Origin: Deltaproteobacteria bacterium
Lineage (GTDB): Bacteria > Desulfobacterota > Desulfobaccia > Desulfobaccales > 0-14-0-80-60-11
DNA: 64,000 bases
Assembly (NCBI GenBank): GCA_016874975.1
Contig: VGSQ01000001.1
Location: 3,474-67,473, forward strand
Reading direction: 5' to 3'
Shown: positions 7,805 through 54,441 of the stretch, in pieces
Numbering within the stretch: the stretch's first letter is position 1
Layout: the number at the start of each line of letters is the position of its first letter
Made by a program: the position numbers and the translations under genes
The notes under the pieces: generated by a model
What the model was told of the DNA's origin: nothing
Seen by the model: the letters and a program-made list of their open reading frames with translations, nothing else
The model's database searches: none

Positions 7805-9016
7805 GTGGAGTCCATGAACCACCCTCCTCCCCGAAGTTACTTTTTATGGTGCGCCGCCTTTTTCTCCACCCTTCTCCTGGGTCTTTACCTTTTCTATATC
7901 CTGATCATGTGGGGGCCGGCCCTGATGGGCGGCTCGGCTTATCCCGTTGATCCCCGGGGTGAACCGGTGGGAGTGGACTTCGCCAATTTTTACCTGGCTT
8001 CCCGCCTGGCCCTTTCCGGAGAACCGGCGGCCGTCTATGATCGGGCCCGCTTTGATTCGTACCGCACCTCGTTTTTCCCTCTCCAGGACCGCGAGGTTTT
8101 TCCCTGGGTTTACCCCCCGTTGTTCCTCCTGCTGATGCTGCCTCTCGCCCTGCTGCCGTATCTGGCGGCACTGGGGGTTTGGCAGGCGGTTTCCCTGGGG
8201 CTGTTTCTCGGGACGCTGCGGCGCCTGGCCCCCCACCCTTTCACCCTGCTGCTGGCCTTGGGGTTTCCGGCCACCTTTATCAATTTCTTCACGGCCCAGA
8301 ACGGTTTTATCACGGTCTTCCTGATGGGAGGAGGGTTGCTCCTGCTGGGAAGTCGCCCCTTCCTGGGCGGGTTGCTCCTGGGGATGCTCGTCTATAAGCC
8401 GCATCTGGGAGTCCTGGTGCCCGTCGCTCTTCTGGCGGGGCGTGGGTGGCGGGCCCTACTGGGGGCCGGAGCCTCGGCCGCGGCTCTTGCGCTGGCCAGC
8501 CTGGTGGTTCTGGGGGCAGAAACCTGGCAAGCCTACCTGTCCAGTATTCCCTCTTCCGTCAACCTCCTGGACAGCAGTTCCTTGCCCTGGAAGCTCATGC
8601 CTTCAGTGTTCGCGGCCGCCCGGGTCGCGGGCGCCGACCCTGCCCTGGCTCGGCTCCTGCACGGCGCGGTCATGGCGGGGGTGGCCGCGGCGGTAGTCTG
8701 GACCTGGAGCAGGCGCAGCTCTCCTTACCTCCGCCACAGCGCCTTCGTGCTGGCGAGCCTCCTGTTCACCCCCTACCTGTTCTTCTACGATTATGTGTGC
8801 CTGGCGTTACCCCTGGCCTGGCTGGGCTGGGAGGGATGTCAACGCGGATTTGGCCGGGGGGAAAAGGCGCTGCTGGCGATCGCCTGGCTGTCTCCCCTCT
8901 CTATGATGCCCTTCCAGGGGGTGAAACTTCCAGGTCTTATCTGTCCCCTGGTCCTGTCGGCGCTGCTGGTGTTGACGCTCCTAAAGTCGCGCCGGGAAGC
9001 GCCGGACCCGGGATGA
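7805..9016 (+). CDS. polytopic GT-C glycosyltransferase, GT87/DUF2029-like
   Basis: 403 aa, about 10 hydrophobic segments; 'GVDFANFYLASRLALSGEPAAVYD' resembles the DUF2029 N-terminal loop. Start is GTG 7805 or ATG 7814. Confidence 0.65.
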   Translation: MESMNHPPPRSYFLWCAAFFSTLLLGLYLFYILIMWGPALMGGSAYPVDPRGEPVGVDFANFYLASRLALSGEPAAVYDRARFDSYRTSFFPLQDREVFPWVYPPLFLLLMLPLALLPYLAALGVWQAVSLGLFLGTLRRLAPHPFTLLLALGFPATFINFFTAQNGFITVFLMGGGLLLLGSRPFLGGLLLGMLVYKPHLGVLVPVALLAGRGWRALLGAGASAAALALASLVVLGAETWQAYLSSIPSSVNLLDSSSLPWKLMPSVFAAARVAGADPALARLLHGAVMAGVAAAVVWTWSRRSSPYLRHSAFVLASLLFTPYLFFYDYVCLALPLAWLGWEGCQRGFGRGEKALLAIAWLSPLSMMPFQGVKLPGLICPLVLSALLVLTLLKSRREAPDPG

Positions 9017-9794: not shown

Positions 9795-11360
9795 TCACCC
9801 CAGAATGCGGTCGATTTCCTCTCTGTCCGCGTCCATGACATAGGTGATGCCGGAGACCTCCGCGGCTTCCCGGGTGAGGGCCACCAGGTCGTTGCGGTCG
9901 ATATATTTCAGGGCGAACTTGCGGGCCCCGGCCATGAGCTGCTGCAGGCCCTGGCGCAGCCGGTCGACGTAGGAGTAAAAGCCGATGGCGCCGGCGGGCA
10001 GTTTGGTGAAGTCTTTGCCGAACCGGGCCTTGAGCTGGGAGCCCACCGCGAAGAGGCGTTCGTAGCCCTGGGCCAGGTCGCCGCCGTCCCGCTCCAGCTT
10101 CCGGGCCAGGAGCCGGCCGTGGGTCTTGCCCACCATGGCCGCGGTCATGACCGAGCGCCCCATGCAGACCGCCTTGACGTAAGGGGCGGCCAGGGCGATG
10201 GCCTTGAAGATATGGTCTTCCAGGGACAGGCCCCCGGCCATGGCGATGGGCGGCACATAGGCCCCCTGGGCCCTGAGGCGCTTACACATCTGGTAGGTGA
10301 GGCACTCCAGGTGAACCGTGGGGATGCCCCATTCGTTCATCATGCGCCAGGGGCTCATGCCGGTGCCGCCGCCGGCCCCGTCGATGGTGAGGAGGTCGAT
10401 CCCGGCCTGGGAGGAAAATTTCAGGGCCCGGGCCAGGTCCGCGGGCCGGTAAGCCCCGGTCTTGAGGGTGACGTATTTGGCCCCCACCCGGCGCAGGCGC
10501 TCCACCTCCCGATAAAAACCATCTTCCTCCACCATGCCCAGGCGGGAGTGGCGCTCGAATTCGCTGATGCCTCCCATCCTGAAGGCGTCCTGGGATTCGG
10601 GCAGGCTAGGGTCGGGCAGCACGATGTAATCCCGCTCCTTGAGCTGCAGGGCCCGCTCGATGCTTTTGAGCTTGACCTCGCCGCCGATGTCCTTGGCGCC
10701 CTGGCCCCATTTGAGCTCAAAGATCTCGATGCCCAGTTTTTCGATGACGTATTCGGGCACGCCCAGGCGGGTGTCTTCCACATTGGCCTGGATGATGATG
10801 CCGCCTCTGCCGTCATACCACCGTTTAAAGCTGTTGACCCGGCGCTCCATTTCCGGGGAGCGCACCACCCGGCCGTTTCTGATTTCGGCCTGGGCGTCCA
10901 TGCCGCAGATGTTTTCCCCGGCCACCACGATGACGCCGGAGATGGCCGCACCCACCGCCATCTCCTCCCAGTTGATGCGGGCGATGTCCGTGGAACCCAC
11001 GGCCCCGGTGAAGATGGGGAAGTCCATCTTGACGCCGCCGTCGGCGCCCAGTTCGGTAGAGCAGTCCACCGCGGGGAAGACGGCTTTGTCCGAGTCCGCC
11101 TCCACCCCCACGGCGCCCACGCAGGTGCCCTGGATGTTGAAGTGGGAGAAATCCGCCGGATAATTCTTGTCGGCGCCGGCGGTCACCTTGCCGAAAGGCT
11201 GGGGATAGATCACCTCCCGGCCTTTCAGGGCGGACCGGCCGATTTCGCAGGGTCCTTCGCACCCGTCCAGGCAGGTGACGCAAATGCCCGAGATGGGGGC
11301 GGGCTCCACCCGGGTGGTGGTGAGAGTGGCGGCGCTGCGGTTGGGTTTGCTGAACGACAT
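9795..11360 (-). CDS. glutamate synthase-related FMN protein (GltB domain-2 like)
   Basis: Start moved to ATG 11358-11360 (MSFSKPN...), preceded by GGAGGAGG. N-terminal Cys cluster 'CVTCLDGCEGPCE'; 'GGTGMSPWRMMNEWGIP' and 'IAMAGGL' are typical of the GltS FMN domain. The upstream 91 codons of the track ORF look non-coding. Confidence 0.85.
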   Translation of the reverse strand: MSFSKPNRSAATLTTTRVEPAPISGICVTCLDGCEGPCEIGRSALKGREVIYPQPFGKVTAGADKNYPADFSHFNIQGTCVGAVGVEADSDKAVFPAVDCSTELGADGGVKMDFPIFTGAVGSTDIARINWEEMAVGAAISGVIVVAGENICGMDAQAEIRNGRVVRSPEMERRVNSFKRWYDGRGGIIIQANVEDTRLGVPEYVIEKLGIEIFELKWGQGAKDIGGEVKLKSIERALQLKERDYIVLPDPSLPESQDAFRMGGISEFERHSRLGMVEEDGFYREVERLRRVGAKYVTLKTGAYRPADLARALKFSSQAGIDLLTIDGAGGGTGMSPWRMMNEWGIPTVHLECLTYQMCKRLRAQGAYVPPIAMAGGLSLEDHIFKAIALAAPYVKAVCMGRSVMTAAMVGKTHGRLLARKLERDGGDLAQGYERLFAVGSQLKARFGKDFTKLPAGAIGFYSYVDRLRQGLQQLMAGARKFALKYIDRNDLVALTREAAEVSGITYVMDADREEIDRILG

Positions 11361-12065: not shown

Positions 12066-12096
12066 TTGACAATGAAGCTTTGCTTTTTATTATAAA
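12066..12096 (+). promoter_or_regulatory. sigma-70-like promoter upstream of flp (locus 1)
   Basis: Perfect -35 TTGACA (12066-12071). The -10 is TATTAT with a 16-nt spacer, or TATAAA with 19 nt. About 165 nt before the flp ATG. Confidence 0.45.
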
Positions 12097-12256
12097 AAGA
12101 ACTACCCGGAAATTGCCGGGCCCGAGTGGGCGTTGAACCAGCATTCCGGGCCGAGGAGGTGAGCAGCGGGCAGCAGGTCGCAAAGCAAGGGCTGAACTTG
12201 AGGGATATATCTGAGCAACCCAAATGGACCACATCAATGTGAGGAGGAAAAACACC

Positions 12257-12448
12257 ATGGAACGGATTAAACGGTTTATCCACGCAGACTCCGGCGTCAC
12301 CGCCATGGAGTACGCCATGATCCTGGGCCTGTTGGCCGCGGCCATTCTGGCTGGCATTGGTCTCTTTTATGGCAACATGGCCACGCTGTTCAACGCCTGG
12401 GCCACGTGGTTCACGAGCCCCAGCACCAAGGCGCCGGTGGGAAGCTGA
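12257..12448 (+). CDS. flp: Flp family type IVb/c pilin
   Basis: Start at ATG 12257 after gaggagga. 'MERIKRFIHADSG/VTAMEYAMILGLLAAAIL' is the Flp G/xxxxEY motif with a hydrophobic helix. 63 aa. Confidence 0.9.
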   Translation: MERIKRFIHADSGVTAMEYAMILGLLAAAILAGIGLFYGNMATLFNAWATWFTSPSTKAPVGS

Positions 12449-12495: not shown

Positions 12496-12690
12496 ATGCA
12501 ACGGGCGATAAAGTTTCTGAGGGACGACGCGGCCGCCACCGCCATGGAATATGGGATGATCCTGGGTCTGGTGGGGGCGGCCATCCTGGTGGCCATTAAC
12601 CTCTTTTACACCAATCTGGCCACCATCTTTTTCGCTTGGGCCGGTTGGTTCACCAGCCCCTCCACCACCAATCCGGTGGGAGGAAGTTGA
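12496..12690 (+). CDS. flp: Flp family pilin (second copy)
   Basis: 64 aa; 'DDAAATAMEYGMILGLVGAAIL'. The C-terminal half is nearly the same as the first copy ('WFTSPST'). Confidence 0.88.
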   Translation: MQRAIKFLRDDAAATAMEYGMILGLVGAAILVAINLFYTNLATIFFAWAGWFTSPSTTNPVGGS

Positions 12691-12697
12691 CCGGGGC

Positions 12698-12743
12698 GTC
12701 CCGGGAATTCCCGGGACACCTCCCTTTATCGAGGTGGTTTTTA
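12698..12743 (+). terminator. hairpins after the pilin genes (candidate attenuator/terminator)
   Basis: 20-nt perfect palindrome GTCCCGGGAATTCCCGGGAC (12698-12717), then CACCTC-N8-GAGGTG followed by GTTTTTA. Confidence 0.45.
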
Positions 12744-12950: not shown

Positions 12951-13520
12951 ATGGTGAGCGACTGGTGGCAGCAGGTTTACCCCTGGCTGGCGGCCCGGGG
13001 TCCCCTCCTCGCTCCCCTGTTATTGACGCTCTGGATGGCCTGGGGCGACATCCGCACCCATCGCATCCCCAACTACCTGACCTTCGGCACGGCCCTCACC
13101 GGATTGGGTTACCAACTGTGGGCCGGGGGCTGGGGCGGTTTGTGGGACGGCTTCCTGGGGCTCCTGCTGGGCTTTTTCCTGCTCATCCTGCCCTACGCTT
13201 TGGGGGGCATGGGGGCGGGCGACGTCAAGGCCCTGGCGGGCCTGGGCGCCTGGCTGGGAGTGAAGCAGACCTTCATCCTGTTTATCCTGATGGGAGTGGC
13301 CGGCGGCGTGCTGGCCATCCTGGTGGTCTGTTGGCGGGGGCAGGTGCGCGAGAAGCTGAAGGCCTGGAAGGTGATGGTGATGAATTTCATGCTCATCCAC
13401 GCCGGGGGCGGCAAGCGCACGGCGCCTGCCGCGGCGGAGACTCCCCGGCCCCAGGAGAAAGGCTTCGCCTACGGCGTGGCCCTGGCCCTGGGAATGGTAG
13501 CCCTGTTTGTGCGAGGTTAA
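12951..13520 (+). CDS. cpaA: A24 family prepilin peptidase (CpaA/TadV type)
   Basis: 189 aa polytopic; both aspartate motifs are present: 'WGDIRTHRIPNYL' and 'GGMGAGDVKALAGLG'. Confidence 0.9.
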   Translation: MVSDWWQQVYPWLAARGPLLAPLLLTLWMAWGDIRTHRIPNYLTFGTALTGLGYQLWAGGWGGLWDGFLGLLLGFFLLILPYALGGMGAGDVKALAGLGAWLGVKQTFILFILMGVAGGVLAILVVCWRGQVREKLKAWKVMVMNFMLIHAGGGKRTAPAAAETPRPQEKGFAYGVALALGMVALFVRG

Positions 13521-13526: not shown

Positions 13527-13982
13527 ATGAGTGTCCGACGGCGTGTGCGCAGGTTTTCCCGGGGCCAGCGGGGAGTGGCGGCGGTGGAGCTGGCCATCAT
13601 CATCCCCGTGTTCCTGCTGATGCTCTTCGGGGTGCTGGAGTTCGGGCACACCTGGTACATCCAGCACGCCCTGACCAACGCCAGCCGGGAGGGGGCAAGG
13701 TACGGCATTGTTTACAAGAATTTTACGACTCCCCCTTACACCCGCATGCCCCCGCAAGCCTTCACCCCCTCCATCCAGGAGGTCGTCGACGGCTATCTCC
13801 TGCAATTTTTCGCGGCCAAATTCTGGGAAGTGAAAATATTAAAAGGAGGGTCTGCCACTACGGCAGGTAGCGACCTTGAGGTAGAAGTCTCTGCGGACAA
13901 GGCATGGTTCGCGCTGGGGGGGCTGGTGCCCGGCCTGACCACCATCAAACTGAAGGCGACCACCACCATGAAACTGGAGTGA
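13527..13982 (+). CDS. tadE: TadE-like pseudopilin
   Basis: 151 aa; 'GVAAVELAIIIPVFLLMLFGVLEFG' is the TadE N-terminal motif. Confidence 0.85.
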   Translation: MSVRRRVRRFSRGQRGVAAVELAIIIPVFLLMLFGVLEFGHTWYIQHALTNASREGARYGIVYKNFTTPPYTRMPPQAFTPSIQEVVDGYLLQFFAAKFWEVKILKGGSATTAGSDLEVEVSADKAWFALGGLVPGLTTIKLKATTTMKLE

Positions 13983-13992: not shown

Positions 13993-14817
13993 ATGAAGCT
14001 TCCCGCGGGCGTAAAGTATTTGATTCTGGCAGGGGTGGTGGGCCTGGTGGCCACCGTCCTGATTCACCGCTACATCACCACCAAGACGGTGACCATCGTC
14101 AGACCCACGGACCAGGTGGTGGTGGCCACGGTGGAGATTGAGCCCGGCACGGCCCTGAGCGGCCGCATGGTTTCCGTGGCCACCTGGCCCAAGGAGATCA
14201 TCCCGGCCAACGCCATCCGCAGCCTGGAGCAGCTTGAGGGCCGGGTGGTGCAGACTTACATCAGCAAGGGCGAGCCGGTGCTCACCACCAAGCTGGCCCC
14301 GGTGGGCACCGCCGCCGGGCTGGGCGGCTTGCTGAAGCCGGGCCTGCTGGCGCTGACCATTCGCACCGACGAAGTCTCCGGGGTGGCGGGCTTCATCCAC
14401 CCGGGCGACCTGGTGGACGTGCTGGCGGAACTGCCCTCGCCCTCCGGCGGCGGGGAGCACTTCTCCAAGGTGATCCTGCAGGGTCTCAGGGTCCTGAGCA
14501 AAGGGCAGATCACTGACCAGACCGGCGAGAAGAAGCCCCAGGTGGTGACCACGGTGACCCTGGAGGTCACCCCGGAGCAGGCCGAAATCCTCAACCTGGC
14601 CAGCTTCCAGGGCAAGATCCGCCTGGCCCTGCGGAACCAGTTGCATAAGGAAACGTACGTCACGGCGGGCGTGGTGACCTCCCAGCTCATCACCAAGTCG
14701 CCTCCGCCCGTGGCCGCCGCGGAGGAGACCCCCAAGCCGCAGCCGGAGGTGAAGCGCAAGGCGGAGCGGGAAGTGGAAGTGATCAAAGGGATGAAGCGGA
14801 GCTCCTCCAACCTGTAA
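13993..14817 (+). CDS. cpaB: Flp pilus assembly protein CpaB/RcpC
   Basis: 274 aa; N-terminal TM segment and SAF-like region. About 80% identical by eye to 54626-55447. Confidence 0.88.
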   Translation: MKLPAGVKYLILAGVVGLVATVLIHRYITTKTVTIVRPTDQVVVATVEIEPGTALSGRMVSVATWPKEIIPANAIRSLEQLEGRVVQTYISKGEPVLTTKLAPVGTAAGLGGLLKPGLLALTIRTDEVSGVAGFIHPGDLVDVLAELPSPSGGGEHFSKVILQGLRVLSKGQITDQTGEKKPQVVTTVTLEVTPEQAEILNLASFQGKIRLALRNQLHKETYVTAGVVTSQLITKSPPPVAAAEETPKPQPEVKRKAEREVEVIKGMKRSSSNL

Positions 14818-14952
14818 GCATGAAGCTTCAAGCCATCCGTCAGGCGCTTACCAGGGAGGGATGGGGCGGAGGGCCGGCAGGGAGGCTCGGTGGCGCCGGC
14901 CCTGAAGTTGCCGCCCCAGTATGCCGATCAAGGAGAGAGGGCAAGGCGCTGG

Positions 14953-16161
14953 ATGAAACCTGAAATACTCACCATTGCCATCCTGTTCGGGGCAGGCGCG
15001 CAGAAGCCCGAGGTGCTGGAATTGGTGCAGGGCCTGCCCCACACCAAGCTCCTTTTCAGCGCCCTGGACGCGGAAAGTTTTCTCGCCCGGATCGGAGACC
15101 GCCCCCCGAAGGTGGCCCTGCTGGACCTGGACAACGCCACCACGGTGCCAACCTGGCTGGACAGCCTGGTGAAACGCCTGCCGCGCTGCGCCATCCTGGT
15201 CACCTGCCATAACCTGGACCCGCTGTTCATCATCAAGATCATGCAGCGCAAGGTGCGGGACTACCTGACGTCGCCGCTCCAACGGGAGGAGTTGCTGGCG
15301 GCCCTGGACCGGGTGCGCACCGACCCCCACCGCGAGAGCGGCGAGGGCGCCTCGCACTGCCAGACCGTGGTGGTGGCGGGGGCCAAAGGGGGCGTGGGCA
15401 CCACCTGCATCGCCACCAATCTGGCGGTGGCCATGGCGGAGCGCCAGCCGGGACGGGTGGTGCTGGTGGACCTGGCCCGGCCCTTCCCCAATGTCGGGCA
15501 ATTTCTGGACCTGAAGTCGCCCCACAGCATCATGGACCTGGTGGACAAGGTGGACCGGCTGGACTCCGTGTTTCTGGGCAAGATTCTGCAAAACCACCCC
15601 CGCAACCTGACGGTGTTGCTGGGGTACGGGGGGTTGAGCCTCAACGCCCATCCGCTCTTGGAGCCCGACATCCTGGACAAGATTTTTCACAGTCTGAAAG
15701 CCTCCTTTGATTGGATCGTGGTGGACCTGGGGCACTGGCTGGACTCCCTCTACCTCAAGGTGGTGGAGGAGGCGGATCAGATTTTGCTGGTCACGGAGTT
15801 GTCCGTCCCCGATTTACAGAACCTGAAGAAGATTCACGGCTATTTTCAGCACTGGCAGATTGACCCCGCCAAGATCCGCCTGGTGGTCAACCGCTACAGC
15901 AAGAGCTTCACCCTGGGATTGCGCGACCTGGAGGGGGTGTTTCAAAAGCCGGCGGACTTTGCGCTTCCCAGCGATTACGCCAACCTTATCGAAGCCATCA
16001 ACCAGGGGGCGCCTCTGGCCGAGGTGGCCCCCCGGTCCAAGCTCTGGCGGGAGCTGCAGGGGGTGGCCGAGTCCGTTATCCGGTCCCGCCAGGTCGGTCC
16101 GGCAGCGGCGGCCCCGCCTCGGAAAAGCTGGTGGCGCCGTCTCTTTTCTTCCAAGGAGTAA
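14953..16161 (+). CDS. cpaE: CpaE/TadZ-like pilus localisation ATPase (receiver-like + ParA/MinD fold)
   Basis: 'VVVAGAKGGVGTTCIATNLAVA' deviant Walker A after a receiver-like N-domain. ATG 14953 preferred over GTG 14890. Confidence 0.85.
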   Translation: MKPEILTIAILFGAGAQKPEVLELVQGLPHTKLLFSALDAESFLARIGDRPPKVALLDLDNATTVPTWLDSLVKRLPRCAILVTCHNLDPLFIIKIMQRKVRDYLTSPLQREELLAALDRVRTDPHRESGEGASHCQTVVVAGAKGGVGTTCIATNLAVAMAERQPGRVVLVDLARPFPNVGQFLDLKSPHSIMDLVDKVDRLDSVFLGKILQNHPRNLTVLLGYGGLSLNAHPLLEPDILDKIFHSLKASFDWIVVDLGHWLDSLYLKVVEEADQILLVTELSVPDLQNLKKIHGYFQHWQIDPAKIRLVVNRYSKSFTLGLRDLEGVFQKPADFALPSDYANLIEAINQGAPLAEVAPRSKLWRELQGVAESVIRSRQVGPAAAAPPRKSWWRRLFSSKE

Positions 16162-16167: not shown

Positions 16168-17574
16168 ATGGCTTGGTTGTACGATCCCAGGAAAGGACCG
16201 GGGGGGTCCCAGGAAGGCAACGGCCCCGGCGAGGCTTCCGGCGAAGCCAAAAGCGGTCCCCAGGAAAGTCGCAGCACCCGCCTCCACGAAATCAAGACCC
16301 GCCTGCACCGCAACCTGGTGGAGCGTCTGGACATCGACCAGTTGCAGCAGATGGATGAGGCGGTGGTGGCCAGTGAGATCCACCGGGCCGTGGCCATTCT
16401 GTTGGCGGACGACCCCTTCCCCCTGACTTTGGAGGAGCGGGCCAAGATCGCCCAGGAACTGGAATTCGAGATCCTGGGATTGGGGCCCCTGGAGCCCCTG
16501 ATGCGGGACCCCACCATCTCCGACATCATGGTCAACCGCCACAATGAGGTCTATATCGAACGCCACGGGCGCATGGAGCTGACGCCCATTAAGTTCCGGG
16601 ACAACACCCACCTGATGCGCATCATCAACAAGATCGTCAGCAACGTGGGCCGGCGCATCGACGAGTCCTCGCCCATGGTGGACGCCCGGCTGCCCGACGG
16701 CTCCCGGGTGAACGCCATCATTCCGCCCCTGGCCCTGGACGGCCCCCTGCTGTCCATCCGGCGGTTCATGGTGATGCGGCCCACCATGGACGAGATTCTC
16801 AAGCGCCAGACCCTCACCCCGGAGATGGCCGAAGTGATGGAGGCCATCGTCAAGTCCAAGCTGAATATCCTCATCTCCGGCGGCACGGGCACGGGCAAGA
16901 CCACGCTGCTCAATATTCTGTCCGTTTACATCGGCGCCGAAGAGCGCATCGTCACGGTGGAGGACGCGGCGGAACTGCAGCTCCAGAAGCGCAACGTCTG
17001 CCGCCTGGAGACCCGGCCGCCCAACATCGAAGGCAAAGGCGAGATCAGCCAGCGAGAACTGGTGCGCAACTCCCTGCGCATGCGCCCCGACCGCATCATC
17101 GTGGGCGAGGTGCGGGGCGTGGAGGTCATGGACATGTTCCAGGCCATGAACACGGGTCATGAGGGCTCCATGAGCACCATCCACGCCAACAGTCCCCGGG
17201 ACGCCCTGCTGCGCCTGGAAACCATGGTCAATCTGGCGGGCTACCAGATCCCCCAGAAGGCCCTGCGCAACCTCATCAGTTCGTCCCTGGACGTCATCAT
17301 CCACCTGGCCCGGCACACCGACGGCGTGCGCCGCATCGTCTCGTTCTCGGAGATCACCGGCATGCAGGAGGACATCATCAGCCTGCAGGACATCTTCGTG
17401 TTCGACCGGCGGGGAATAGACGAGGAGGGCCATATCCTGGGGCAGTACATGTCCACCGGGGTGCGGCCCCGCTTCGCGGACCGTTGCCGGGTTTTCGGCC
17501 ACCCCGTCCCGGACGAATATTTCCTTCCGGCCCGGCTGGCCCGGTCCGGGTGGCTGGGCGGGGCCTCCGTCTGA
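16168..17574 (+). CDS. cpaF: CpaF/TadA secretion ATPase
   Basis: 468 aa; '[12 protein letters not shown]' Walker A, '[11 protein letters not shown]', '[12 protein letters not shown]', '[12 protein letters not shown]'. Confidence 0.97.
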
Positions 17575-17593: not shown

Positions 17594-18589
17594 TTGGGAC
17601 CCTTTGCTACACGCGATCTCTGGTACGCCCTGGGCCTCTCGGGCATCCTGGTGGGGGTCATCCTGCTGGTGATGGCCTTGTATTACCTGTTGGTAGACCC
17701 GGTCAAACGGCGCCAGAAGATCATGGAACGGCTGGAGGCGGCCAGCGAAGAACACCTGAAAAAGGTGCAGGTGTTGAAGGCCGGGCTGGAGTCCCAGGGA
17801 AACCGGGCCATGGCCTTCATGAAGCGCTTTCTGGGGACCGGACGGCTCAGCCGGGTGCAAAGGATGCTCCTACAGGCGGACATTTTCTGGCTGCCCAGCT
17901 CCTTCCTGCTCCTGGTGGGGGGGCTGGGGGCGGCCGGATTTTTCGGCGGCTTTGTGCTCCTGGGCAGCCTCCTGTGGGGCCTCGCGCTCATGGTGGGGCT
18001 GGCCTCCCTGCCCTTCCTTTACGTGCGACGGAGGAAGAAGGTCAAGACCCTGCTCTTCGAGGAACAGATGCCCGACGCCATGGAGCTCATGGTGCGATCG
18101 CTCCGGGCCGGCCACACCATGCCTGCGGCCATCGAACTGCTGAGCAAGGAGATGAACCACCCCATGGGCTCCGAGATGCGGGTCACATATGAAGAACAGC
18201 GCTTCGGCATCAGCATTCCCGAATCGCTGCTGCACCTGCTGGAACGGGTGGAGTCGGACGACCTGCGCTATTTCGTCACCGCGGTGGTCATTCAGCACGA
18301 AGCCGGCGGCAATATCGTGGAAATCATCGAAAAGATCGGCATGGTGATCCGCAGCCGCCTCAACTTCAAGGCCAAAATCCGGGCCTTCACCGCCGAAGGT
18401 CGGCTCTCCGCCCTGGTGCTCATCATTCTGCCGGTGGCGCTGTTCTTCCTGCTCCTGGTCATTAAGAACGAGTACGAAGGGGTGCTGCTGCGCGATGAGT
18501 TGGGCCGCCGCTTCCTTATCGTGGGCGTCTTTATGCTCCTGGCCGGCGCATACGTCATGCGGCGCATCATCCGGTCGGTGGAGCTTTAG
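17594..18589 (+). CDS. tadB: TadB (type II secretion F-domain membrane protein)
   Basis: 331 aa polytopic; 'LPDAMELMVRSLRAGHTMPAAIE' GspF-like segment. TTG start as given by the track. Confidence 0.88.
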   Translation: MGPFATRDLWYALGLSGILVGVILLVMALYYLLVDPVKRRQKIMERLEAASEEHLKKVQVLKAGLESQGNRAMAFMKRFLGTGRLSRVQRMLLQADIFWLPSSFLLLVGGLGAAGFFGGFVLLGSLLWGLALMVGLASLPFLYVRRRKKVKTLLFEEQMPDAMELMVRSLRAGHTMPAAIELLSKEMNHPMGSEMRVTYEEQRFGISIPESLLHLLERVESDDLRYFVTAVVIQHEAGGNIVEIIEKIGMVIRSRLNFKAKIRAFTAEGRLSALVLIILPVALFFLLLVIKNEYEGVLLRDELGRRFLIVGVFMLLAGAYVMRRIIRSVEL

Positions 18590-18609: not shown

Positions 18610-19545
18610 ATGCTGTGGCTGATTCTCATCACCTCCTTTCTGGCCGTCTTCCTGTTGATCTACGCCCTGGAGTTGGTCTGGGACCGGCGGCGCCGCATCC
18701 GGGATCAGTTGACCAACCCCGATCCCTGGCAGAGCTCAGCCCTGCTGAAGCCCGACCCTGAGCGCTCCGCGGTCAAGGAAATGGCCCTGAAGTGGCTCTC
18801 GGCCTCGGGCTACTGGACCCTCAAGGACCCCAAGAATCTCTCCCGGATGCGGGAGACCCTGATCCAGGCCGGGTTCCGCCATCCCCAGGCGCCCTTCATT
18901 TACATGAGCCTGCGGGCCCTCACCGCCCTGTGGTTGCCGGTGCCCTATCTGCTGCTGCTGGTCATCAAAGGCGGCGTCACGCCCCTGACCCTGCTGCCGG
19001 CTGTGGGCCTCTCCCTGGTGGGCTTCCTTTTGCCCACGCTGGTCCTCCGTTTTTACAAAGAGGGCCGGCAAAACCGCCTGGACCGGGCCCTGCCGGACAT
19101 CCTGGACCTGCTGGTCATCTGCATGGAGGCGGGGCTGTCCCTCAACGCCTCCCTGAACCGGGTGGCCGAGGAGATCAAGCTGGTTTACCGGGATTTCTAC
19201 GTGGAGTTGCAGATCACCAGCGCCGAACTGCGGGCCGGCCTCCCCTGGGACGAGGCCCTGGACAACCTGGGCCGGCGCACCGGCGTGCAGAGCATCAAGT
19301 CGCTGGTGGCCCTGATGATCCAGTCGGAGAAGCTGGGGGCCAGCATCGGCCAGGCCCTGCGCAACCACGGCGAGTTCACCCGCACCCAGCGGGCCCTCCG
19401 GGCCGAAGAGCGGGCGGCCAAACTGGCGGTGAAGATCGTCTTCCCCCTGGTCTTCTTCATCCTGCCCGTCATGTTCATCATCACCGTGGGGCCGGCCATC
19501 ATTCATATTATCAGGACCATGTTCCCGGCTATCCTGGGAAAATAG
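18610..19545 (+). CDS. tadC: TadC (type II secretion F-domain membrane protein)
   Basis: 311 aa; 'LPDILDLLVICMEAGLSLNASL' GspF-like segment, TMs at both ends. Confidence 0.88.
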   Translation: MLWLILITSFLAVFLLIYALELVWDRRRRIRDQLTNPDPWQSSALLKPDPERSAVKEMALKWLSASGYWTLKDPKNLSRMRETLIQAGFRHPQAPFIYMSLRALTALWLPVPYLLLLVIKGGVTPLTLLPAVGLSLVGFLLPTLVLRFYKEGRQNRLDRALPDILDLLVICMEAGLSLNASLNRVAEEIKLVYRDFYVELQITSAELRAGLPWDEALDNLGRRTGVQSIKSLVALMIQSEKLGASIGQALRNHGEFTRTQRALRAEERAAKLAVKIVFPLVFFILPVMFIITVGPAIIHIIRTMFPAILGK

Positions 19546-19700
19546 GATGTTCCCCCCTCGCTCCGCCGTCGCGGCCGAGGGGTCGGTTGCATTACCGCTT
19601 TCTGATGATTATTTTAAACTGAAAATCTCCAACCCCTGTGCCCCCGTCACAGGAAACAGGCCCGCATTTCGGGAAGCCATCAAGCAAATGGAGAAGTGAG

Positions 19701-20894
19701 ATGAACACCCGATGCAAAAAATTTCTGACGAACAGGTCCGGGATGACCGGCGTTCTCACCGCTATCTGCCTCTTCGTCTTCGTGGGCCTGCTGGCCCTCG
19801 TCATTGACCTGGGGCATCTGCAAGGGGTGAAAAGCGAATTGCAGAACGCCGCCGATTCGGCGGCCCTCGCCGGCGCCCGGCGCCTGCTGGGCAGCGATGA
19901 GTACCCCTGGGTTGCTCCCCTGGGCGGCAACTATGGCGTTTACACCGCCGCCACCCCGGACTGCCTTGACGCCGTGAATCAGGCCCGGCAGGCCTCCAGC
20001 TCCAACCGCTCCGACGGTCAACCACTCCCCAACACGGTGGAGGTGAGCAATGTGGTGCTGGGCTGGTGGGACTTTGACAACAATCGCTTCGAAGCCAGGC
20101 CTTCCTGCACCTGGGCCGACGTGAACGCGGTGCAGGTGACGGTGCGCCGCACCGAAGACAGCGGCAGCCCCGTGTTCCTGACCCTGGCCCGTCTTTTCGG
20201 CAGTGAGACCGCGGGGGTGGTGGCCATTGCCACCGCGGCCCTGATGCCCCAGGGGTATGTGACGGAACTGCCGGCCGGGCCCTTCAACAACATCGCCATC
20301 CAGAAGCGGGTTCTGGACAGCCTGGCGGCGGGGCAACCAGGCAACCTCAATCCCGCCGACCCGACCAACAGCTTCTGGTGCTCCCAGGACGGGCAGCCCT
20401 ATGCCTTCACCAACAACCTCAGGAAATGGCTGAAAGACGGCTCTCCCCCCATCGAGGCGACGGGTCGGCTCAACCTGGAGCAGGGGGTCAGGCACGTCAA
20501 CGACAAGTTGGTGCTGGAGGACATGAAGACATTCTTGAGTCAGCGCTCACGCTCCTGGGAGGTGGACGGCCAGTTGTATAACGGCTGGCTGCTGGTGATC
20601 CCGGTGATAAACTATGGCAGTTCCGCCCAGGCGCCGGTCAATCCCACGGGCATGCCCATAAATCCCCTGGCCCTGGTCCGCTGGCTCTTTGAGGTGCGGG
20701 AGGCCCATGCCTGCTATGCCTGGCGCGTCCCCATCGTTAAACTGCAGCCCATCATTATCACCCAGGTGGTGCCCACCGGCAAAAACAAGCGCATCGAATT
20801 CAAGGTGGCCCCCTGGTCGGTGGTCGTGGTGGGCGGCAGCTCCGGTGGCGGTCCCTCCACGGTGTACGCCACCCGGCCCAAACTGGTGCGGTGA
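19701..20894 (+). CDS. tadG: TadG-like pilus-associated protein (TadE/G N-terminal anchor)
   Basis: Start at ATG 19701 after ggagaag. 'GMTGVLTAICLFVFVGLLALVIDLGHLQGVKSELQNAADSAALAGA'. No obvious vWA MIDAS motif. Confidence 0.75.
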   Translation: MNTRCKKFLTNRSGMTGVLTAICLFVFVGLLALVIDLGHLQGVKSELQNAADSAALAGARRLLGSDEYPWVAPLGGNYGVYTAATPDCLDAVNQARQASSSNRSDGQPLPNTVEVSNVVLGWWDFDNNRFEARPSCTWADVNAVQVTVRRTEDSGSPVFLTLARLFGSETAGVVAIATAALMPQGYVTELPAGPFNNIAIQKRVLDSLAAGQPGNLNPADPTNSFWCSQDGQPYAFTNNLRKWLKDGSPPIEATGRLNLEQGVRHVNDKLVLEDMKTFLSQRSRSWEVDGQLYNGWLLVIPVINYGSSAQAPVNPTGMPINPLALVRWLFEVREAHACYAWRVPIVKLQPIIITQVVPTGKNKRIEFKVAPWSVVVVGGSSGGGPSTVYATRPKLVR

Positions 20895-21104
20895 GGCCTG
20901 TTCCGGCCACGCGGTCCCCAATCAGGCTCCGGACGCCTCAACGCCGGCAGGGCTGTTGAAAATCGGGCGAAACGCCGGTCGTCATTCTGACCGCAAAGGG
21001 GATCCTTGCGGCTATCCCGGCCCTGTGACCGGGGCGGCGCGCAGAATGACAACCTCATGTGTACCGACGGGTTTTGCAACCGCCCGTTGAGGAGAAACCT
21101 GAAT

Positions 21105-22148
21105 ATGAAGCGTTTTCTCGCTATCATCAAGGACAGACGTGGGATGATCGGCGTGCTCACGGCCGTCAGTCTCTTCATGTTCGTGGGCCTGCTGGCCATC
21201 GTCATCGACCTGGGGCATCTGCACGCGGTGCGGAACGAATTGCAAAGGGCCGCGGAGGCCGGGGCCCTGGCCGGCACCCGGGCGCTGTTCCCCCTGGAGG
21301 GCTACCCCTCCGTGGTGCCCGCCGTGGACCCGCCCTTCTGTGACCTGGGCACCGCCAAAGCCCGGGAAACGGCAGGGGCCAACCTGTCCGACGGCGCCTC
21401 GGTCACCGTGCCGATCAGCGATGTGGTGCGGGGCTGGTGGGACTGGACCGCCAACACCTTCACCCCCAAACCGGCCTCCTGCTCCCTGGCGGAGACCAAC
21501 GCCATCCAGGTGACGGCCCGGCGCACGGAGGCGAGCGGCGGCCCGGTCTTTCTCACCCTGGCCCGGCTCTTCGGGCTGGAGTCGGCGGGCGTGGTGGCCT
21601 CGGCCACCGCGGCGGTGGGCTACGTCAGCGGCCTGCCCCCGGGGCCGTTCAACAATATCGCCATCCAGGCCGGGTGGCTCGGGACCCTCACCGTCGGGGG
21701 CACCTTCAGCTTCAGCCCCGACCACTCGGACAACAGCTCCTGGGCCGGCCCCGACAGCCTCCCCAACATCAACGCCGCCCTTTTGAAGAACTGGATCAAT
21801 AATAACAGCTCCCCCGAGATGCCTCTTACCGGCGGCGTCAACCTGATCAACGGCTGGGCCACCTCGGTGCTCATGGCCCTGCAGTCCCAGTTGGGGCCGA
21901 ACTCCAAGACCTATCCGGGCTACGGTACAGGCTGGCTGGTGGTCCTCCCAGTAGTGAATGTTATCAAGATGAACCAGTCTGCGCCCATCGTCGCTCTGCA
22001 GCCGGTGATCATCACCAATGTGGTGCCCACCGGCGGCAACAAGCGCATCGAATTTATCTTGTACGGGGGCCCGGTGAGCGTCATCGGCGGCACTCCCGGC
22101 GGCCCCGTCTCCCTGGTCTGGGCCACCCGCCCCAAGCTGGTGCAATGA
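21105..22148 (+). CDS. tadG: TadG-like pilus-associated protein (second copy)
   Basis: Start at ATG 21105 after gaggag. 'GMIGVLTAVSLFMFVGLLAIVIDLGHLHAVRNELQRAAEAGALAG'. Paralog of 19701-20894. Confidence 0.75.
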   Translation: MKRFLAIIKDRRGMIGVLTAVSLFMFVGLLAIVIDLGHLHAVRNELQRAAEAGALAGTRALFPLEGYPSVVPAVDPPFCDLGTAKARETAGANLSDGASVTVPISDVVRGWWDWTANTFTPKPASCSLAETNAIQVTARRTEASGGPVFLTLARLFGLESAGVVASATAAVGYVSGLPPGPFNNIAIQAGWLGTLTVGGTFSFSPDHSDNSSWAGPDSLPNINAALLKNWINNNSSPEMPLTGGVNLINGWATSVLMALQSQLGPNSKTYPGYGTGWLVVLPVVNVIKMNQSAPIVALQPVIITNVVPTGGNKRIEFILYGGPVSVIGGTPGGPVSLVWATRPKLVQ

Positions 22149-22599: not shown

Positions 22600-22750
22600 C
22601 TTCCGGTGCAGCGTCATAGTTTCCCAAATATCATGGTGCGCGGTGCGCACCCTACAGATTCTTCCGGTGCAGCGTCATGGTTTCCCAAATATCATGGTGC
22701 GCGGTGCGCACCCTACAGCCCCCAAGTAGGGTGCGCACCGCGCACCATGA
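22600..22750. repeat. 61-bp-period tandem duplication ending in a perfect 25-bp stem-loop
   Basis: 58-nt units at 22600-22657 and 22661-22718 differ at one base. TCATGGTGCGCGGTGCGCACCCTAC (22692-22716) is perfectly complementary to GTAGGGTGCGCACCGCGCACCATGA (22726-22750), with a 9-nt loop. Confidence 0.9.
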
Positions 22751-23058
22751 AAGAGATCGGCATCTTGCCGAGCGTTTTCAAAACCGCCGCCCTTTCCCAG
22801 GACAAAGGGAGAATTTTGCAAGAGCCTGATCGGATGAACAATTTTTTCTTGAAAAATAATTTGGTTTCTCTTATCCTAAGAATAAGGGGGGGATTTCTTG
22901 GGGATGAAAAATCTCACCGTTCCGTTTTTTCTCTAGCGGTATCCTCCGGAATTCCATCTAATTTGTTAGCTCCGAGGGCGCTTCCTCCGGAAGCCGATCC
23001 AGGCGGAGCGGGGCTGGGGTTCAGTTTCGCCGGGGCTGGCCAGCTTGACAGGGTGGGC

Positions 23059-23814
23059 ATGGAATTCGTTTATCCCTGCGCCGGGGCCGGGCTGTCCGTG
23101 GTATTGCCGGCCTACAACGAAGAGGAGAACCTGGAGGCGGCGGTGGCCCACTGCCTGGACCGGCTGCCCCGGGTGACGGAGCTGCCCTTCGAGGTGGTGG
23201 TGGTGAACGACGGCAGCCGGGACCGCACCGGGGAGTTGCTGGACCGTCTGGCCGCGGCGCACCCCCAGGTGCGGAGGGTGCATCACGCCTGCAACCAGGG
23301 CTACGGGCAGGCGGTGCTCACCGGCATCCGGAACACCCGCTATGACCTGATTTTTTTCACCGACGCGGATCTGCAGTTTGATCTGGGAGAAATAGGACTT
23401 TTGTTCCCGCATCTGCAGGACCATGACCTGGTGGTAGGGTATCGGCTGAACCGGCAGGACCCGCCCCACCGCCTGTTGTTCGCCTACGGCTGGAACAAGC
23501 TGATGCGGCTGCTCTTCGGGCTCAGGATCAGGGATGTGGATTGCGCCTTCAAACTTTTCCGGCGCCGGGTCATGGAGAACCTGACCATCATTTCCCGGGG
23601 AGCCATGACCAGCGCCGAAATCATGGTGCGCACCCGTGCGGCGGGCGTGACGTTCGCCCAGGTGGGCGTGCACCATTACCCCCGGCGGCGCGGCACGCCC
23701 ACGGGCGGGCAGTTGTGGGTGATTGCCCGGGCCTTCCGGGAGTTGGCCCGCTTCTTTTGGATCTGGTATCTGGCCGGACCCCGGATCCCGGTCCGTGAGT
23801 CAGGCAGGATCTGA
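23059..23814 (+). CDS. GT2 glycosyltransferase, polyprenyl-phosphate sugar synthase-like (DPM1/GtrB/ArnC type)
   Basis: Start moved to ATG 23059. 'LSVVLPAYNEEENL', 'VVVVNDGSRDRT', 'FTDADLQFD' (DxD). The upstream part of track ORF 22606-23814 reads through repeats. Confidence 0.85.
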   Translation: MEFVYPCAGAGLSVVLPAYNEEENLEAAVAHCLDRLPRVTELPFEVVVVNDGSRDRTGELLDRLAAAHPQVRRVHHACNQGYGQAVLTGIRNTRYDLIFFTDADLQFDLGEIGLLFPHLQDHDLVVGYRLNRQDPPHRLLFAYGWNKLMRLLFGLRIRDVDCAFKLFRRRVMENLTIISRGAMTSAEIMVRTRAAGVTFAQVGVHHYPRRRGTPTGGQLWVIARAFRELARFFWIWYLAGPRIPVRESGRI

Positions 23815-23852
23815 CAGGAAGTCAACCATCCCCGTCACCAAGGGACGAGACC

Positions 23853-24995
23853 ATGCACATCAAAAGCGATTGCCGCTTTTTTCTGGGCGACCGGCCCTGC
23901 AAGTATCACAAGCTCTTTGAGATGGAGTGTGAAGCCTGCCAGTTCTACCAGTCGGCCCCGGAACGGGTGCTCATCGTTAAGCTGGGCGCGGCCGGCGACG
24001 TGGTGCGCACCACTCCCCTGCTCGCCCCTTTGCGGGAGCGGCACCCCCGGGCCCTGATCTATTGGCTCACCGACTACCCGGAACTGGTGCCGCAGAGTGT
24101 GGACCGCATCCTGAAATTCAGCTACCGGAACCAGTTGGTGCTGCAGGCCACCCCCTGGCGGGCCATCTATAACCTGGACAAGGACGCGGAGGCCTGCGCC
24201 CTGGTGAATCTCTTGTATACCCCGGAGCAGTACGGCTTCAAGCTGGACAACGGGGTGTGCGTCCCCATCAATGAAATGGCCCACGACAAGTGGCTCACCG
24301 GCCTGTCCGACCCCTTGAACAAGGCCAACACCCTGAGCTATCTGGAAGAGATCTTTCTGATTTCAGGATTTCAGTACCGGGGCGAGCCCTACCTCTTGGA
24401 CGAGCCGTCGGCGCCGACTTTCTTGCATTTCTCCCGGGGCGCCGGGGTGGTGGGGCTGAACACCGGCTGCGGGACCCGCTGGCTGACCCGCAAATGGCCC
24501 GAGTCGCACTGGCTGCAATTGATCCAATACCTGCAGCACGCCGGTCTGCAGGTCCTCATCCTGGGGGGCCCCGACGAACACTCTTTTAATCTGGAGTTGG
24601 CCCGCAAAAGCGGCGCCCTTTACCCGGGCTATTACCCCCTGAAGGAATTCGTGGGTCTGGTGGCCGCCTGCGACCTGGTGGTCACCGGCGTCACCCTGGC
24701 CCTCCACCTGGCGTTGGGCCTGCAGAAGCGGGTGGTGTTGATGAACAACATCTTCAATCGCCACGAATTCGAGCTCTTCGGCCTGGGGGAGATTTTGGAG
24801 CCCGAACTGTCCTGCCTGGGGTGTTTCAAGAGCACCTGTTCCCTCAACTGCATGGCCCTGATCACGCCGGACCAGGTGTTCGCCTCCGTATTGCACCAGT
24901 TGGACAGGGAATCCTCCAGCTCGGAGGTGGGGGGGCATTTTCGGGAATCGGCCCGCTCTCCGCTGTGGGCCAACGGCCGCAACCTCATCCAATAA
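23853..24995 (+). CDS. GT9 family glycosyltransferase (heptosyltransferase-like) with Cys-rich N-terminus
   Basis: 380 aa; 'RVLIVKLGAAGDVVRTTPLLAPLRERHP' is typical GT9. The N-terminal 30 aa carry 5 Cys. Confidence 0.8.
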   Translation: MHIKSDCRFFLGDRPCKYHKLFEMECEACQFYQSAPERVLIVKLGAAGDVVRTTPLLAPLRERHPRALIYWLTDYPELVPQSVDRILKFSYRNQLVLQATPWRAIYNLDKDAEACALVNLLYTPEQYGFKLDNGVCVPINEMAHDKWLTGLSDPLNKANTLSYLEEIFLISGFQYRGEPYLLDEPSAPTFLHFSRGAGVVGLNTGCGTRWLTRKWPESHWLQLIQYLQHAGLQVLILGGPDEHSFNLELARKSGALYPGYYPLKEFVGLVAACDLVVTGVTLALHLALGLQKRVVLMNNIFNRHEFELFGLGEILEPELSCLGCFKSTCSLNCMALITPDQVFASVLHQLDRESSSSEVGGHFRESARSPLWANGRNLIQ

Positions 24996-25943: not shown

Positions 25944-26108
25944 GGCCGACGGCCATGCGCGACCGCTGTGGGTGGGTGTGGTCCGGAAAAAGAAATCCTG
26001 GGCAAATCCGGGGAAACGCGCCTTGAAGCCCGGCGCGTTCCGGGTATAATAGGGAAACGGCGGCCGGCCGGGGAGCGTCCGGGCCGGTCCTGCCTGCCAG
26101 GGAAAACC

Positions 26109-26747
26109 ATGCTGCCCGTCTCCGCCTATACGGCCCCCCGGGGCTTCACCGTCTGGCTCACCGGCCTCTCCGGCGCGGGTAAATCCACGCTGGCCGCCAC
26201 CCTGCGGGAGCACCTGATCCAGGGGGGCCTCCCCAACCTCACCATTTTCGACGGCGATGAGGCCCGGGCCCTGCTCTGGCGGGACCTGGGCTTTACCCGG
26301 GAGGACCGGGAGGCCAATATCCGACGCCTGGGGGACCTGTGCACCCTGCTCACCGGCCAGGGTCTGGTCACCATCGTGGCCGCCATCTCTCCGTACCGCC
26401 GCTGCCGCCAGGACCTGCGCCGGCGCCTGCAGGCCTTCGTGGAGGTCTACGTGGCCTGCCCCCTGGAGGTCTGCGAACGGCGGGATGTGAAGGGACTTTA
26501 CGCCCGGGCCCGGGCCGGTGAGATCAAGCTCTTCACCGGCCTGGACGACCCCTACGAACCGCCGGAGGCCCCTGAAGTCACGGTCTGCACCGACCGGGAG
26601 ACGGTGGAGGAGGGGGTGGCGAAAATCATCGCCGCCCTGCTGGATCGGGGCTTGCTTCGGATCGCGCCGGCGGCCGACATGGACCAGGGGTCCGGGTCCG
26701 CCCTGCCGACGCAGGTGGCGGGACGCCTGGCGGGGCCGTGCGCGTAA
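26109..26747 (+). CDS. cysC: adenylyl-sulfate (APS) kinase
   Basis: Start ATG 26109. 'GFTVWLTGLSGAGKSTLA' P-loop, 'FDGDEAR', 'LGFTREDREANIRR'. Confidence 0.92.
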   Translation: MLPVSAYTAPRGFTVWLTGLSGAGKSTLAATLREHLIQGGLPNLTIFDGDEARALLWRDLGFTREDREANIRRLGDLCTLLTGQGLVTIVAAISPYRRCRQDLRRRLQAFVEVYVACPLEVCERRDVKGLYARARAGEIKLFTGLDDPYEPPEAPEVTVCTDRETVEEGVAKIIAALLDRGLLRIAPAADMDQGSGSALPTQVAGRLAGPCA

Positions 26748-26795
26748 AAGCCGCAGAGGGAGCGCGGCAAACTGTTGTCTAGGAAAGGAGACTGC

Positions 26796-27620: not shown

Positions 27621-27635
27621 GGCGGAGCGAGGAGG

Positions 27636-28946: not shown

Positions 28947-29009
28947 GGCGAAGGGGCCCCAGCAAACTTTTTTAACAAATTAACCAACAGGCGTCTCACG
29001 AGGTAGGCT

Positions 29010-31537: not shown

Positions 31538-31559
31538 TAGATCCTGTTCCGCAAGGTTC

Positions 31560-32030
31560 ATGTGGAATGTGCTTCCTGTCTATGAAAAGTCCTTGGTGGC
31601 GCCGGCATCTTGCCGGTGCAGCGCACAGGCTGGAAGCCCGTGCCACCAAAGACAAAGACGGCCGAGACGCCCGCCCCACCGGATTTTTCATATGTTACGG
31701 GTGGGCCAAAGGCCCATGAGGGACTGCTCTGAAAATGTCTCTCGTAGGGCGCGTCTTACGCGCCAAAGACGGTGCGTGAGGCGCACCCTACATTTTCATG
31801 GTTTTGAATGTTCCACCGGTACATGAATGGCTCGTTCCCAAGCTCCTGCTTGGGAACGCACTTGCCCCCGAAGCTCCTGCTTCGGACCAAGGGGGAGACC
31901 ATACCCTGGATGATGCAGGCAATCCCAACCTTGGCGAAGCTATCCGGGTTCGGTTTTCTGTAGGGTGCGCCCTGCGGCCCGCTTCCTTTGCCCGGCGGCG
32001 GGCGGAGACGCCCGCGCTGCCGACCTCTTC
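31560..32030. repeat. mosaic intergenic repeat modules
   Basis: cgttcccaagctcctgcttgggaacgcacttgcccccgaagctcctgcttcggacca (31841-31897) matches 22214-22269. GGTGCGTGAGGCGCACCCTAC and GTAGGGCGCGTCTTACGCGCC hairpins. 31676-31730 matches 9301-9352 inverted. Confidence 0.8.
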
Positions 32031-32128
32031 ATGATGTACGGGTGAACCTGGGGCTCATGGGCAACCCCTCCGGAAAGCTCAGGGCCCGGCCGAAGCACCC
32101 GGAACATGGACACAAGCCCCCGGCGCCC

Positions 32129-54231: not shown

Positions 54232-54441
54232 ATCCAATTCCTCCCCAGTTCCCCTTTAACACCCTTCTGGGGAAGATGTCAATGAAATTCTTTTATCTAC
54301 GATTAAAGAAACTTTCATAATTTTTTCTTGGCACAACAATAGAGCCCTGTACAGACATGGGTGCTTTAGAAAGATGATCGGGGCGCCTCTTGAAAATTCC
54401 TTGTCATTGTTAACTCGTGTTCATCCGGAAAGTCGTTTTGT

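Follow-up and report, generated by a model that had tools for sequence, protein, structure and literature searches.

How does a Tad pilus leave a cell with two membranes when the locus that encodes it carries no gene for an outer-membrane pore? Tad pili are usually annotated one locus at a time, and detection tools and reviews count the secretin as a core part of the diderm system. The 64-kb stretch of DNA considered here (the window), which comes from an uncultured, Desulfobaccales-related organism, holds two Tad loci, and it is the first of them, locus 1 (12.2–22.1 kb), that raises this question: it comprises 11 genes, none interrupted, and is an intact Tad/Flp locus made up of inner-membrane and filament genes only. 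We propose that locus 1 uses a secretin encoded in trans, most likely the CpaC2 of locus 2, a reading drawn from sequence comparison that we hold with a probability of about 0.58. An earlier, sequence-only reading of this DNA had named secretin borrowing among several options. That option is now favoured by the docking architecture of the alignment protein CpaB1, the concerted evolution of CpaB and the separate placement of the outer-membrane genes; the implied rarity of such a locus and the suggested membrane fusion protein (MFP)–TolC conduit did not hold up.

The absence of the secretin from locus 1 is a real property of the sequence. As previously stated, cpaB1 (13993–14817, + strand), which encodes an RcpC-type periplasmic alignment protein of 274 residues (SAF and RcpC domains, RcpC E = 2e-28), is followed after 135 nucleotides by cpaE1 (14953–16161, +), which encodes a TadZ-type ParA/MinD ATPase of 402 residues (AAA_31/CbiA/BcsQ), and we confirm the spacer at 14818–14952. 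The longest open reading frame (ORF) of cpaE1 begins at a GTG at 14890; the ATG at 14953 is favoured by the gene calls of the Joint Genome Institute (JGI) and by end-to-end alignment with CpaE2 (42% identity over the full length). Between cpaB2 (54626–55447, −) and cpaE2 (51190–52395, −), locus 2 carries, as the same reading held, the 495-residue secretin gene cpaC2 (52750–54237, −; Secretin 1e-44, T2SS-T3SS_pil_N 4e-18 and a weak BON match) and a gene for a 98-residue lipoprotein (52438–52734, −), in which we find a signal peptide and an LVMGC lipobox. Its claims that tadD and the TPR/LytR_C lipoprotein occur in locus 2 only, and that no frame of locus 1 contains a secretin, also stood: no TadD or TPR lipoprotein was found in locus 1, and a six-frame profile search of the window agrees on the secretin.

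No second secretin was recovered in the window by either approach. A tblastn search of the 64 kb with CpaC2 returned only CpaC2 itself, and an unfiltered search of all six-frame stop-to-stop segments with a profile made from 120 CpaC homologues gave a sole match at 52753–54255 (E = 1.5e-261), with the next best at E > 1. cpaC2 is thus the only secretin gene in the 64-kb window and a candidate for a shared outer-membrane pore. Neither tblastn at E up to 10 nor the six-frame profile revealed a secretin remnant in the spacer or the rest of locus 1; between 12.2 and 25 kb every ORF-sized stretch could be assigned to a non-secretin family, and all non-coding gaps measured 460 nucleotides or less. 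We also considered whether the spacer holds a regulatory RNA or a conserved element and ruled this out, as Rfam has no match in the window, nine type-1 spacers (defined below) fail to align (34% mean column identity) and the spacer folds no better than its shuffles (z = −0.8).

CpaB1 offers the first indication of how such a locus might still reach the surface. The protein matches Pseudomonas aeruginosa RcpC (9gzr) both by profile (E = 1.5e-12) and by structure, where it is the top Foldseek hit (E = 6e-13), and its AlphaFold model (mean predicted local distance difference test score, pLDDT, 73) comprises a transmembrane helix (residues 7–31), a D1 (SAF) and a D2 (RcpC) domain, a disordered, Pro/Ala-rich linker (~226–259) and a beta-hairpin (260–273) modelled at moderate confidence (pLDDT about 50–60). 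In P. aeruginosa, the RcpC hairpin binds the N-domain of RcpA, whose beta-sheet it completes, and function requires the hairpin (PMC12307814). The hairpin of CpaB1 bears the motif VEVIKGMKR, and VEVIKG[ML]xR recurs in nearly all CpaBs examined, irrespective of whether their locus contains a secretin. The retention of this predicted secretin-docking architecture in CpaB1, as judged from sequence, model and analogy, is evidence that locus 1 would still use a secretin.

Whether locus 1 is an oddity of one genome can be judged from its relatives. Using a CpaB profile, we retrieved 25 related loci (numbered with the prefix L), in 22 of which the cpaB–cpaE junction is readable. The nearest genomes are metagenome-assembled genomes (MAGs) labelled Desulfobacterales, Desulfobaccales or Desulfobacca; CpaB proteins in NCBI are named "MAG: Deltaproteobacteria bacterium", and identical copies of the locus-1 proteins occur on JGI contigs Ga0194110/112/113/126. 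G+C content is ~64% and uniform over the window. In CpaF and CpaE trees, locus 1 falls into a deep clade that we call type 1 and locus 2 into a separate type-2 clade. Other type-1 members are L005, L007, L009, L010, L012, L013 (CpaE tree only) and L014 (CpaF tree only), from MAGs labelled Deltaproteobacteria or Desulfobacterales, the rest of the set being labelled Desulfobaccales or Desulfobacca. Type-1 loci have in common the gene order tadE-cpaB-cpaE-cpaF-tadB-tadC-tadG, which also occurs in the Desulfobacca-like L030 and L031 (left out of the CpaF and CpaE trees). Proteins of the two window loci are 40% (CpaA), 40% (TadE), 42% (CpaE), 43% (TadB), 51% (TadC) and 67% (CpaF) identical. Because of these identities and the deep, separate clades, we rejected the idea that locus 1 is a recent tandem-type duplicate of locus 2 that suffered a deletion. 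Relative to its CAZFWX orthologue, locus 1 has a ratio of nonsynonymous to synonymous divergence (dN/dS) of ~0.2–0.3 (cpaB, cpaE and cpaF), which argues that it is a maintained locus and not a decaying copy.

The junction without a secretin is in fact the norm for this Desulfobaccales lineage: 18 of the 22 readable junctions have none (7 type 1 and 11 type-2-like), and only four contain one (L006, L008, L015 and L024). Together with the published cases of flp-2 in Sinorhizobium meliloti and Sinorhizobium fredii and of Kil in Myxococcus xanthus, both compared below, these counts contradict the rarity implied earlier.

Secretins are absent from every type-1 locus, and no other conserved neighbour able to act as an outer-membrane part accompanies them; an all-against-all comparison of their flanks yielded no extra conserved outer-membrane gene. 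This bears directly on the suggestion that the locus-1 filament stays in the periplasm as a pseudopilus, or exits by another type of channel, for example the MFP-TolC pair at 29010–31537. The lack of a secretin in cis is the sole support for this account, along with the proximity of OEP/TolC-family and HlyD-family genes. The pair, however, sits among genes for an APS kinase, a PAPS-reductase-like protein, a phosphodiesterase and a Wzx-like protein, and it has no counterpart beside other type-1 loci; CpaB1, moreover, still has the secretin-docking hairpin motif, and we know of no Tad system with a TolC channel. We therefore regard a periplasmic filament or a non-secretin exit as very improbable, and the earlier link between locus 1 and the MFP-TolC pair fails on its sulfation/polysaccharide gene context and its lack of conservation at type-1 loci. 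The pair belongs to a run of genes on one strand (25968–33589, +), whose products are the APS kinase, the PAPS-reductase-like protein, the phosphodiesterase (type I), the HlyD-family adaptor, the TolC-family protein and the Wzx-like flippase. Such a set suggests that a sulfated polysaccharide or a comparable product is exported, with no connection to the Tad loci.

Against the background of this deep split, CpaB behaves differently from every other component. Identity between CpaB1 and CpaB2 is 75.5% along the whole protein, as against 40–67% for the other six pairs, and rises to 84% in the first 225 residues. Each window copy shares less with its CAZFWX orthologue (77% and 74%), and between the two copies of CAZFWX the identity is 83%. 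The CpaB tree joins the two window copies (bootstrap 93) and the two CAZFWX copies (L005 and L006, bootstrap 95) within a clade, at bootstrap 100, that unites all type-1 CpaBs with the CpaBs of co-resident, secretin-bearing type-2 loci. A four-sequence test counting amino-acid sites that group by genome versus by orthology returned 18 versus 4 for CpaB, compared with 1 versus 82 for CpaF and 2 versus 69 for CpaE. Fifteen of the 18 homogenised CpaB sites lie in residues 36–225, a span predicted to cover the periplasmic domains D1 and D2 and to reach into the linker; sites within the linker, like residues 5 and 8 in the cytoplasmic tail, still carry the signal of orthology. CpaB alone thus evolves in concert between the loci, escaping the type-1/type-2 split. 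The periplasmic ring is thus the one component kept alike in the two machines, which is compatible with a partner common to both, in the periplasm or the outer membrane, or with rings of mixed composition. Recent gene conversion was considered as the cause of the CpaB similarity; synonymous divergence (dS) between cpaB1 and cpaB2 is 0.58–0.66, not below that of orthologues, and cpaF behaves alike, its synonymous sites being saturated as well, so that these values do not distinguish conversion from parallel selection.

Several observations weigh against the use of CpaC2 by locus 1. The C-terminal quarter of CpaB, which includes the linker and borders on the hairpin, is its most divergent part (37–47% identity over residues 226–270), and the hairpin regions of CpaB1 and CpaB2 have just the short core motif in common. 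CpaB is not homogenised in CAYZOP (L009/L018) or CAVTZS (L015/L016), where the copies are 56–58% identical, so CpaB similarity is not required wherever two loci coexist. Saturation of the synonymous sites (dS 0.58–0.72 in all pairs), which carry no quartet signal, makes gene conversion without functional meaning and selection by a shared partner inseparable. The trees are neighbour-joining trees of 26 sequences, not maximum-likelihood trees. Finally, our view spans 64 kb; given the orphan secretin cassettes of relatives, the genome may hold another secretin beyond it.

This last point leads to the outer-membrane genes themselves, which form a module comprising CpaC, a lipoprotein of ~95–98 residues, a TPR-LytR_C lipoprotein and sometimes TadD, found either embedded in type-2 loci or standing alone. 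In the window, the module lies within locus 2, ~31–40 kb from locus 1 and on the opposite strand. Its small lipoprotein accompanies cpaC in both embedded and orphan cassettes (L006, L015, L024 and L032–L034). The third member, the TPR-LytR_C lipoprotein (45634–47814, −), is encoded beyond tadC2 and accompanies the orphan cpaC genes of L032–L034, and the TadD-like TPR protein (44597–45337, −), a candidate pilotin, has homologues in L006 and L018–L020. The final ~50 residues of this TadD-like ORF are Pro/Trp/Ser-rich and matches to homologues stop near residue 190–205; its end may reflect a frameshift or a mis-extension. As for cpaC2, it is preceded by a non-coding stretch of 388 nucleotides (54238–54625) that is unusually long within locus 2 and has no Rfam match, and 400–970 nucleotides upstream of the orphan cpaC genes in L032–L034 are also free of called genes; cpaC may have its own promoter or leader.

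Relatives record both the loss and the independence of this module. Between cpaB and cpaE, L020 retains a deletion scar (10801–11293) in which CpaC residues 30–92 (67% identical) run straight into the final 31 residues of the 98-residue protein, and L018–L020 have kept tadD with cpaC gone, indicating that type-2 loci lose cpaC through deletion. All three close CpaC homologues sampled on long contigs (66–71% identity) reside in stand-alone cassettes composed of cpaC, the ~95-residue protein and TPR-LytR_C (L032, 10001–13881; L033, 10001–14073; L034, 10001–13601), with no further Tad gene within 10 kb. Their neighbours are unrelated and mostly housekeeping or metabolic genes, those of L032 and L033 lying downstream of rpsB-tsf-pyrH-frr-uppS and uvrC. 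The module can thus be separated from the rest of a Tad locus.

Such cassettes make it conceivable that locus 1 has a dedicated secretin of this stand-alone kind outside the window and that locus 2 keeps its own for itself. Apart from the three of three orphan homologues in close relatives (L032–L034), this account can point to an orphan-cassette CpaC that clusters with a Desulfobacca-labelled protein, the type-1 loci L030 and L031 also being labelled Desulfobacca acetoxidans; to CAYZOP, where two secretin-less loci (L009 and L018) share one contig and any secretin must be elsewhere; and to the stand-alone secretin cassette of S. meliloti, Locus 3 (PMC10934763). Yet the 64-kb window contains no second secretin, and the type-2 locus bears one in all three genomes that combine a type-1 locus with a readable type-2 cpaB–cpaE junction, namely those of the window, CAZFWX (L005/L006) and JAFDHU (L007/L008). 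The within-genome homogenisation of the CpaB periplasmic domains is, in addition, explained more easily by a shared partner. On balance, we judge a dedicated secretin, the chief rival account, unlikely, and continue with CpaC2 as the most likely pore for locus 1.

Could locus 1 instead be a locus that builds no surface pilus of its own? Its gene set speaks to this. Locus 1 opens with two Flp prepilin genes, flp1a (12224–12448, +; Flp_Fap E = 5e-7, processing site G/VTAMEY), which the JGI calls give as a 63-residue version from an internal start, and flp1b (12496–12690, +; Flp_Fap E = 7e-8, processing site A/ATAMEY). A sigma-70-like promoter lies upstream of flp1a (12066–12093, 11/12 matches) and a terminator-like hairpin 3′ of flp1b (12717–12736). 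Next come the prepilin peptidase gene cpaA1 (12951–13520, +; Peptidase_A24 E = 7e-18, 65.5 bits), with both catalytic-aspartate motifs intact (GD...RIPN and the GxGD of GGMGAGDVKA), and the pseudopilin gene tadE1 (13527–13982, +; TadE E = 1e-17). Beyond cpaB1 and cpaE1 follow cpaF1 for the TadA-type secretion ATPase (16168–17574, +; T2SSE E = 6e-66), the platform genes tadB1 (17594–18589, +) and tadC1 (18610–19545, +), both matching T2SSF, and two genes for TadG-like proteins, the first (19638–20894, +) with Tad and Tad_C domains and kept in all type-1 loci, the second at 21006–22148 (+). Locus 1 thus has Flp prepilins, an A24 peptidase, CpaF, TadB, TadC and CpaE, and an RcpC-type CpaB, as expected of a Tad/Flp locus, and from its sequence it looks maintained and expressible. 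It does not have the RcpA/CpaC secretin and TadD pilotin of the diderm form, and by gene content it is an incomplete diderm Tad locus.

Locus 2 shows a different set of gaps. Its prepilin-peptidase homologue, cpaA2 (55913–56467, −), scores 21.8 bits against Peptidase_A24, below the cut-off of 26.5. Prepilin peptidases are among the GxGD aspartyl proteases (PMC4985597, PMC3584216), and CpaA1 and 14 relatives read GG(M/L)GAGDVKA, where CpaA2 reads GGIDEGYLKA; the RIPN motif is also lost, and the L006 orthologue is intact. CpaA2 thus lacks the catalytic aspartate of a TadV/CpaA-type A24 peptidase and, judged by these motifs, is probably inactive. The Flp and TadE proteins of locus 2 have normal processing sites, so that the locus-2 pilins probably need CpaA1 or another peptidase. 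Loss of the CpaA2 aspartate suggests mutual dependence of the loci. The two Flp genes of locus 2 lie at 56983–57147 and 56721–56903; two further ORFs (56560–56724 and 57342–57524) were considered as Flp genes and rejected, Flp features being absent. Locus 2 is also without TadG-like genes.

With these gaps and a probably dead peptidase, locus 2 plausibly draws on locus 1 products, and one may imagine that locus 1 is either silent or a donor of parts (CpaA1, the TadG-like minor pilins and extra Flp) to locus 2. A parts donor, however, would not need the motor and platform set (cpaE, cpaF, tadB and tadC), which is intact in locus 1, conserved as a block in at least eight genomes and under purifying selection. 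We consider it improbable that locus 1 builds no pilus of its own.

In the arrangement that we favour, with locus 1 drawing on a secretin made in trans, a CpaB1 ring would be seated on the locus-1 inner-membrane platform and span the periplasm, its C-terminal beta-hairpins would engage the N-domain of a CpaC supplied from outside the locus, CpaC2 being the likeliest, and the locus-1 pili would leave the cell via the CpaC pore. We infer that CpaB1 docks with CpaC2, that both Tad machines are expressed and that the locus-2 pilins rely on CpaA1. The dependence of locus 1 on a trans-encoded secretin is supported indirectly by the concerted evolution of CpaB and the retention of its hairpin. A broader and distinctly more tentative proposal is that the two loci form one interdependent system, in which two inner-membrane machines with different pilins would use a single shared outer-membrane module, repeated homogenisation would keep the CpaB rings compatible with the pore or with each other, locus 1 would supply the active peptidase and the TadG-like proteins, locus 2 would supply the secretin and pilotin, and this would be a general, previously unrecognised design of the Desulfobaccales; we regard this as possible but doubtful.

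The pilins and neighbours of type-1 loci have features of their own. Mature Flp1a contains ~14% F/Y/W compared with ~5% in Flp2b; the tails of other type-1 Flps hold several F/W/Y (L009, 8400–8878; L012, 521–697; L013, 8877–9068), and type-2 Flps are plain. The two type-1 Flps of the window have tails of the form TSPSTxxPVG(G)S, the last residue being Ser. The aromatic content and tails of type-1 Flps may relate to glycosylation or to a specialised filament surface. A gene of the GT87 (GT-C type) glycosyltransferase family is located upstream of locus 1 (7805–9016, +), and GT2 (22606–23814, +) and GT9 (23853–24995, +) genes directly downstream (22606–24995 in all). In the Desulfobacca-like type-1 locus, three GT87 genes are immediately upstream (L030, 4433–8244; L031, 4400–8220) and dTDP-sugar genes downstream. 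The association of type-1 Tad loci with glycosylation genes is recurrent, not universal.

Set beside the canonical Tad loci (Aggregatibacter actinomycetemcomitans tad, Caulobacter crescentus cpa and P. aeruginosa rcp-tad), locus 1 is alike in having all inner-membrane and filament components and a CpaB with the RcpC domain order and terminal hairpin, and differs in lacking rcpA/cpaC, any rcpB/cpaD-like gene and tadD. Denise et al. (2019, PMC6668835) describe loss of the secretin only for the Tad systems of monoderms (Actinobacteria, Firmicutes). Locus 1 has its secretin-less gene set in common with these, but the host here is diderm, as shown by genes for a secretin, a TolC/OEP protein and lipoproteins in the window, and CpaB keeps a secretin-docking motif; it is therefore not a monoderm-type Tad locus of a host without an outer membrane.

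Split Tad systems are the closer comparison, as here cpaB adjoins cpaE without cpaC or cpaD in a diderm, and the same genome encodes, at another place, a secretin together with a small lipoprotein and a TPR protein. In S. meliloti and S. fredii, the flp-2 operon contains cpaA2-cpaB2-cpaE2 without cpaC and cpaD, and S. meliloti Locus 3, which encodes the secretin pilQ2, a 98-residue lipoprotein and a TadD-like protein, has been proposed to complete it (PMC10934763). Like locus 1, flp-2 is a second Tad cluster of a diderm in which cpaB adjoins cpaE and a canonical, secretin-bearing Tad cluster coexists. There are differences: the sole visible outer-membrane module here is embedded in another complete Tad locus, whereas that of Sinorhizobium stands alone; the TPR partner here carries LytR_C; the lineage is Desulfobaccales here and Rhizobiaceae there; and the concerted evolution of CpaB and the degenerate peptidase of the secretin-bearing locus are seen here, neither being met in the passages of PMC10934763 consulted. 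The Kil system of M. xanthus is a working Tad-like machine built from two chromosomal sites, only one of which has a secretin (PMC8460266). Its clusters, however, are complementary halves of one machine, whereas here motor, platform and pilins are encoded in full by each locus, so that one pore would be shared by two machines; the FHA-domain proteins and the link to predation of Kil are not seen here.

If one pore does serve two machines, these loci pose the questions of how a CpaB ring recognises its secretin and how competing machines share a pore, and concerted evolution of the alignment protein could be a general signature of shared secretins. Of modest practical value, CpaB homogenisation and hairpin retention may serve as a comparative marker that predicts the secretin of a secretin-less locus. 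In the Desulfobaccales, where the outer-membrane module is detachable and secretin-less loci are the rule, the label "incomplete" misjudges such loci. To the split systems already known, the loci described here add modularity across a lineage, concerted evolution of CpaB and a degenerate peptidase.

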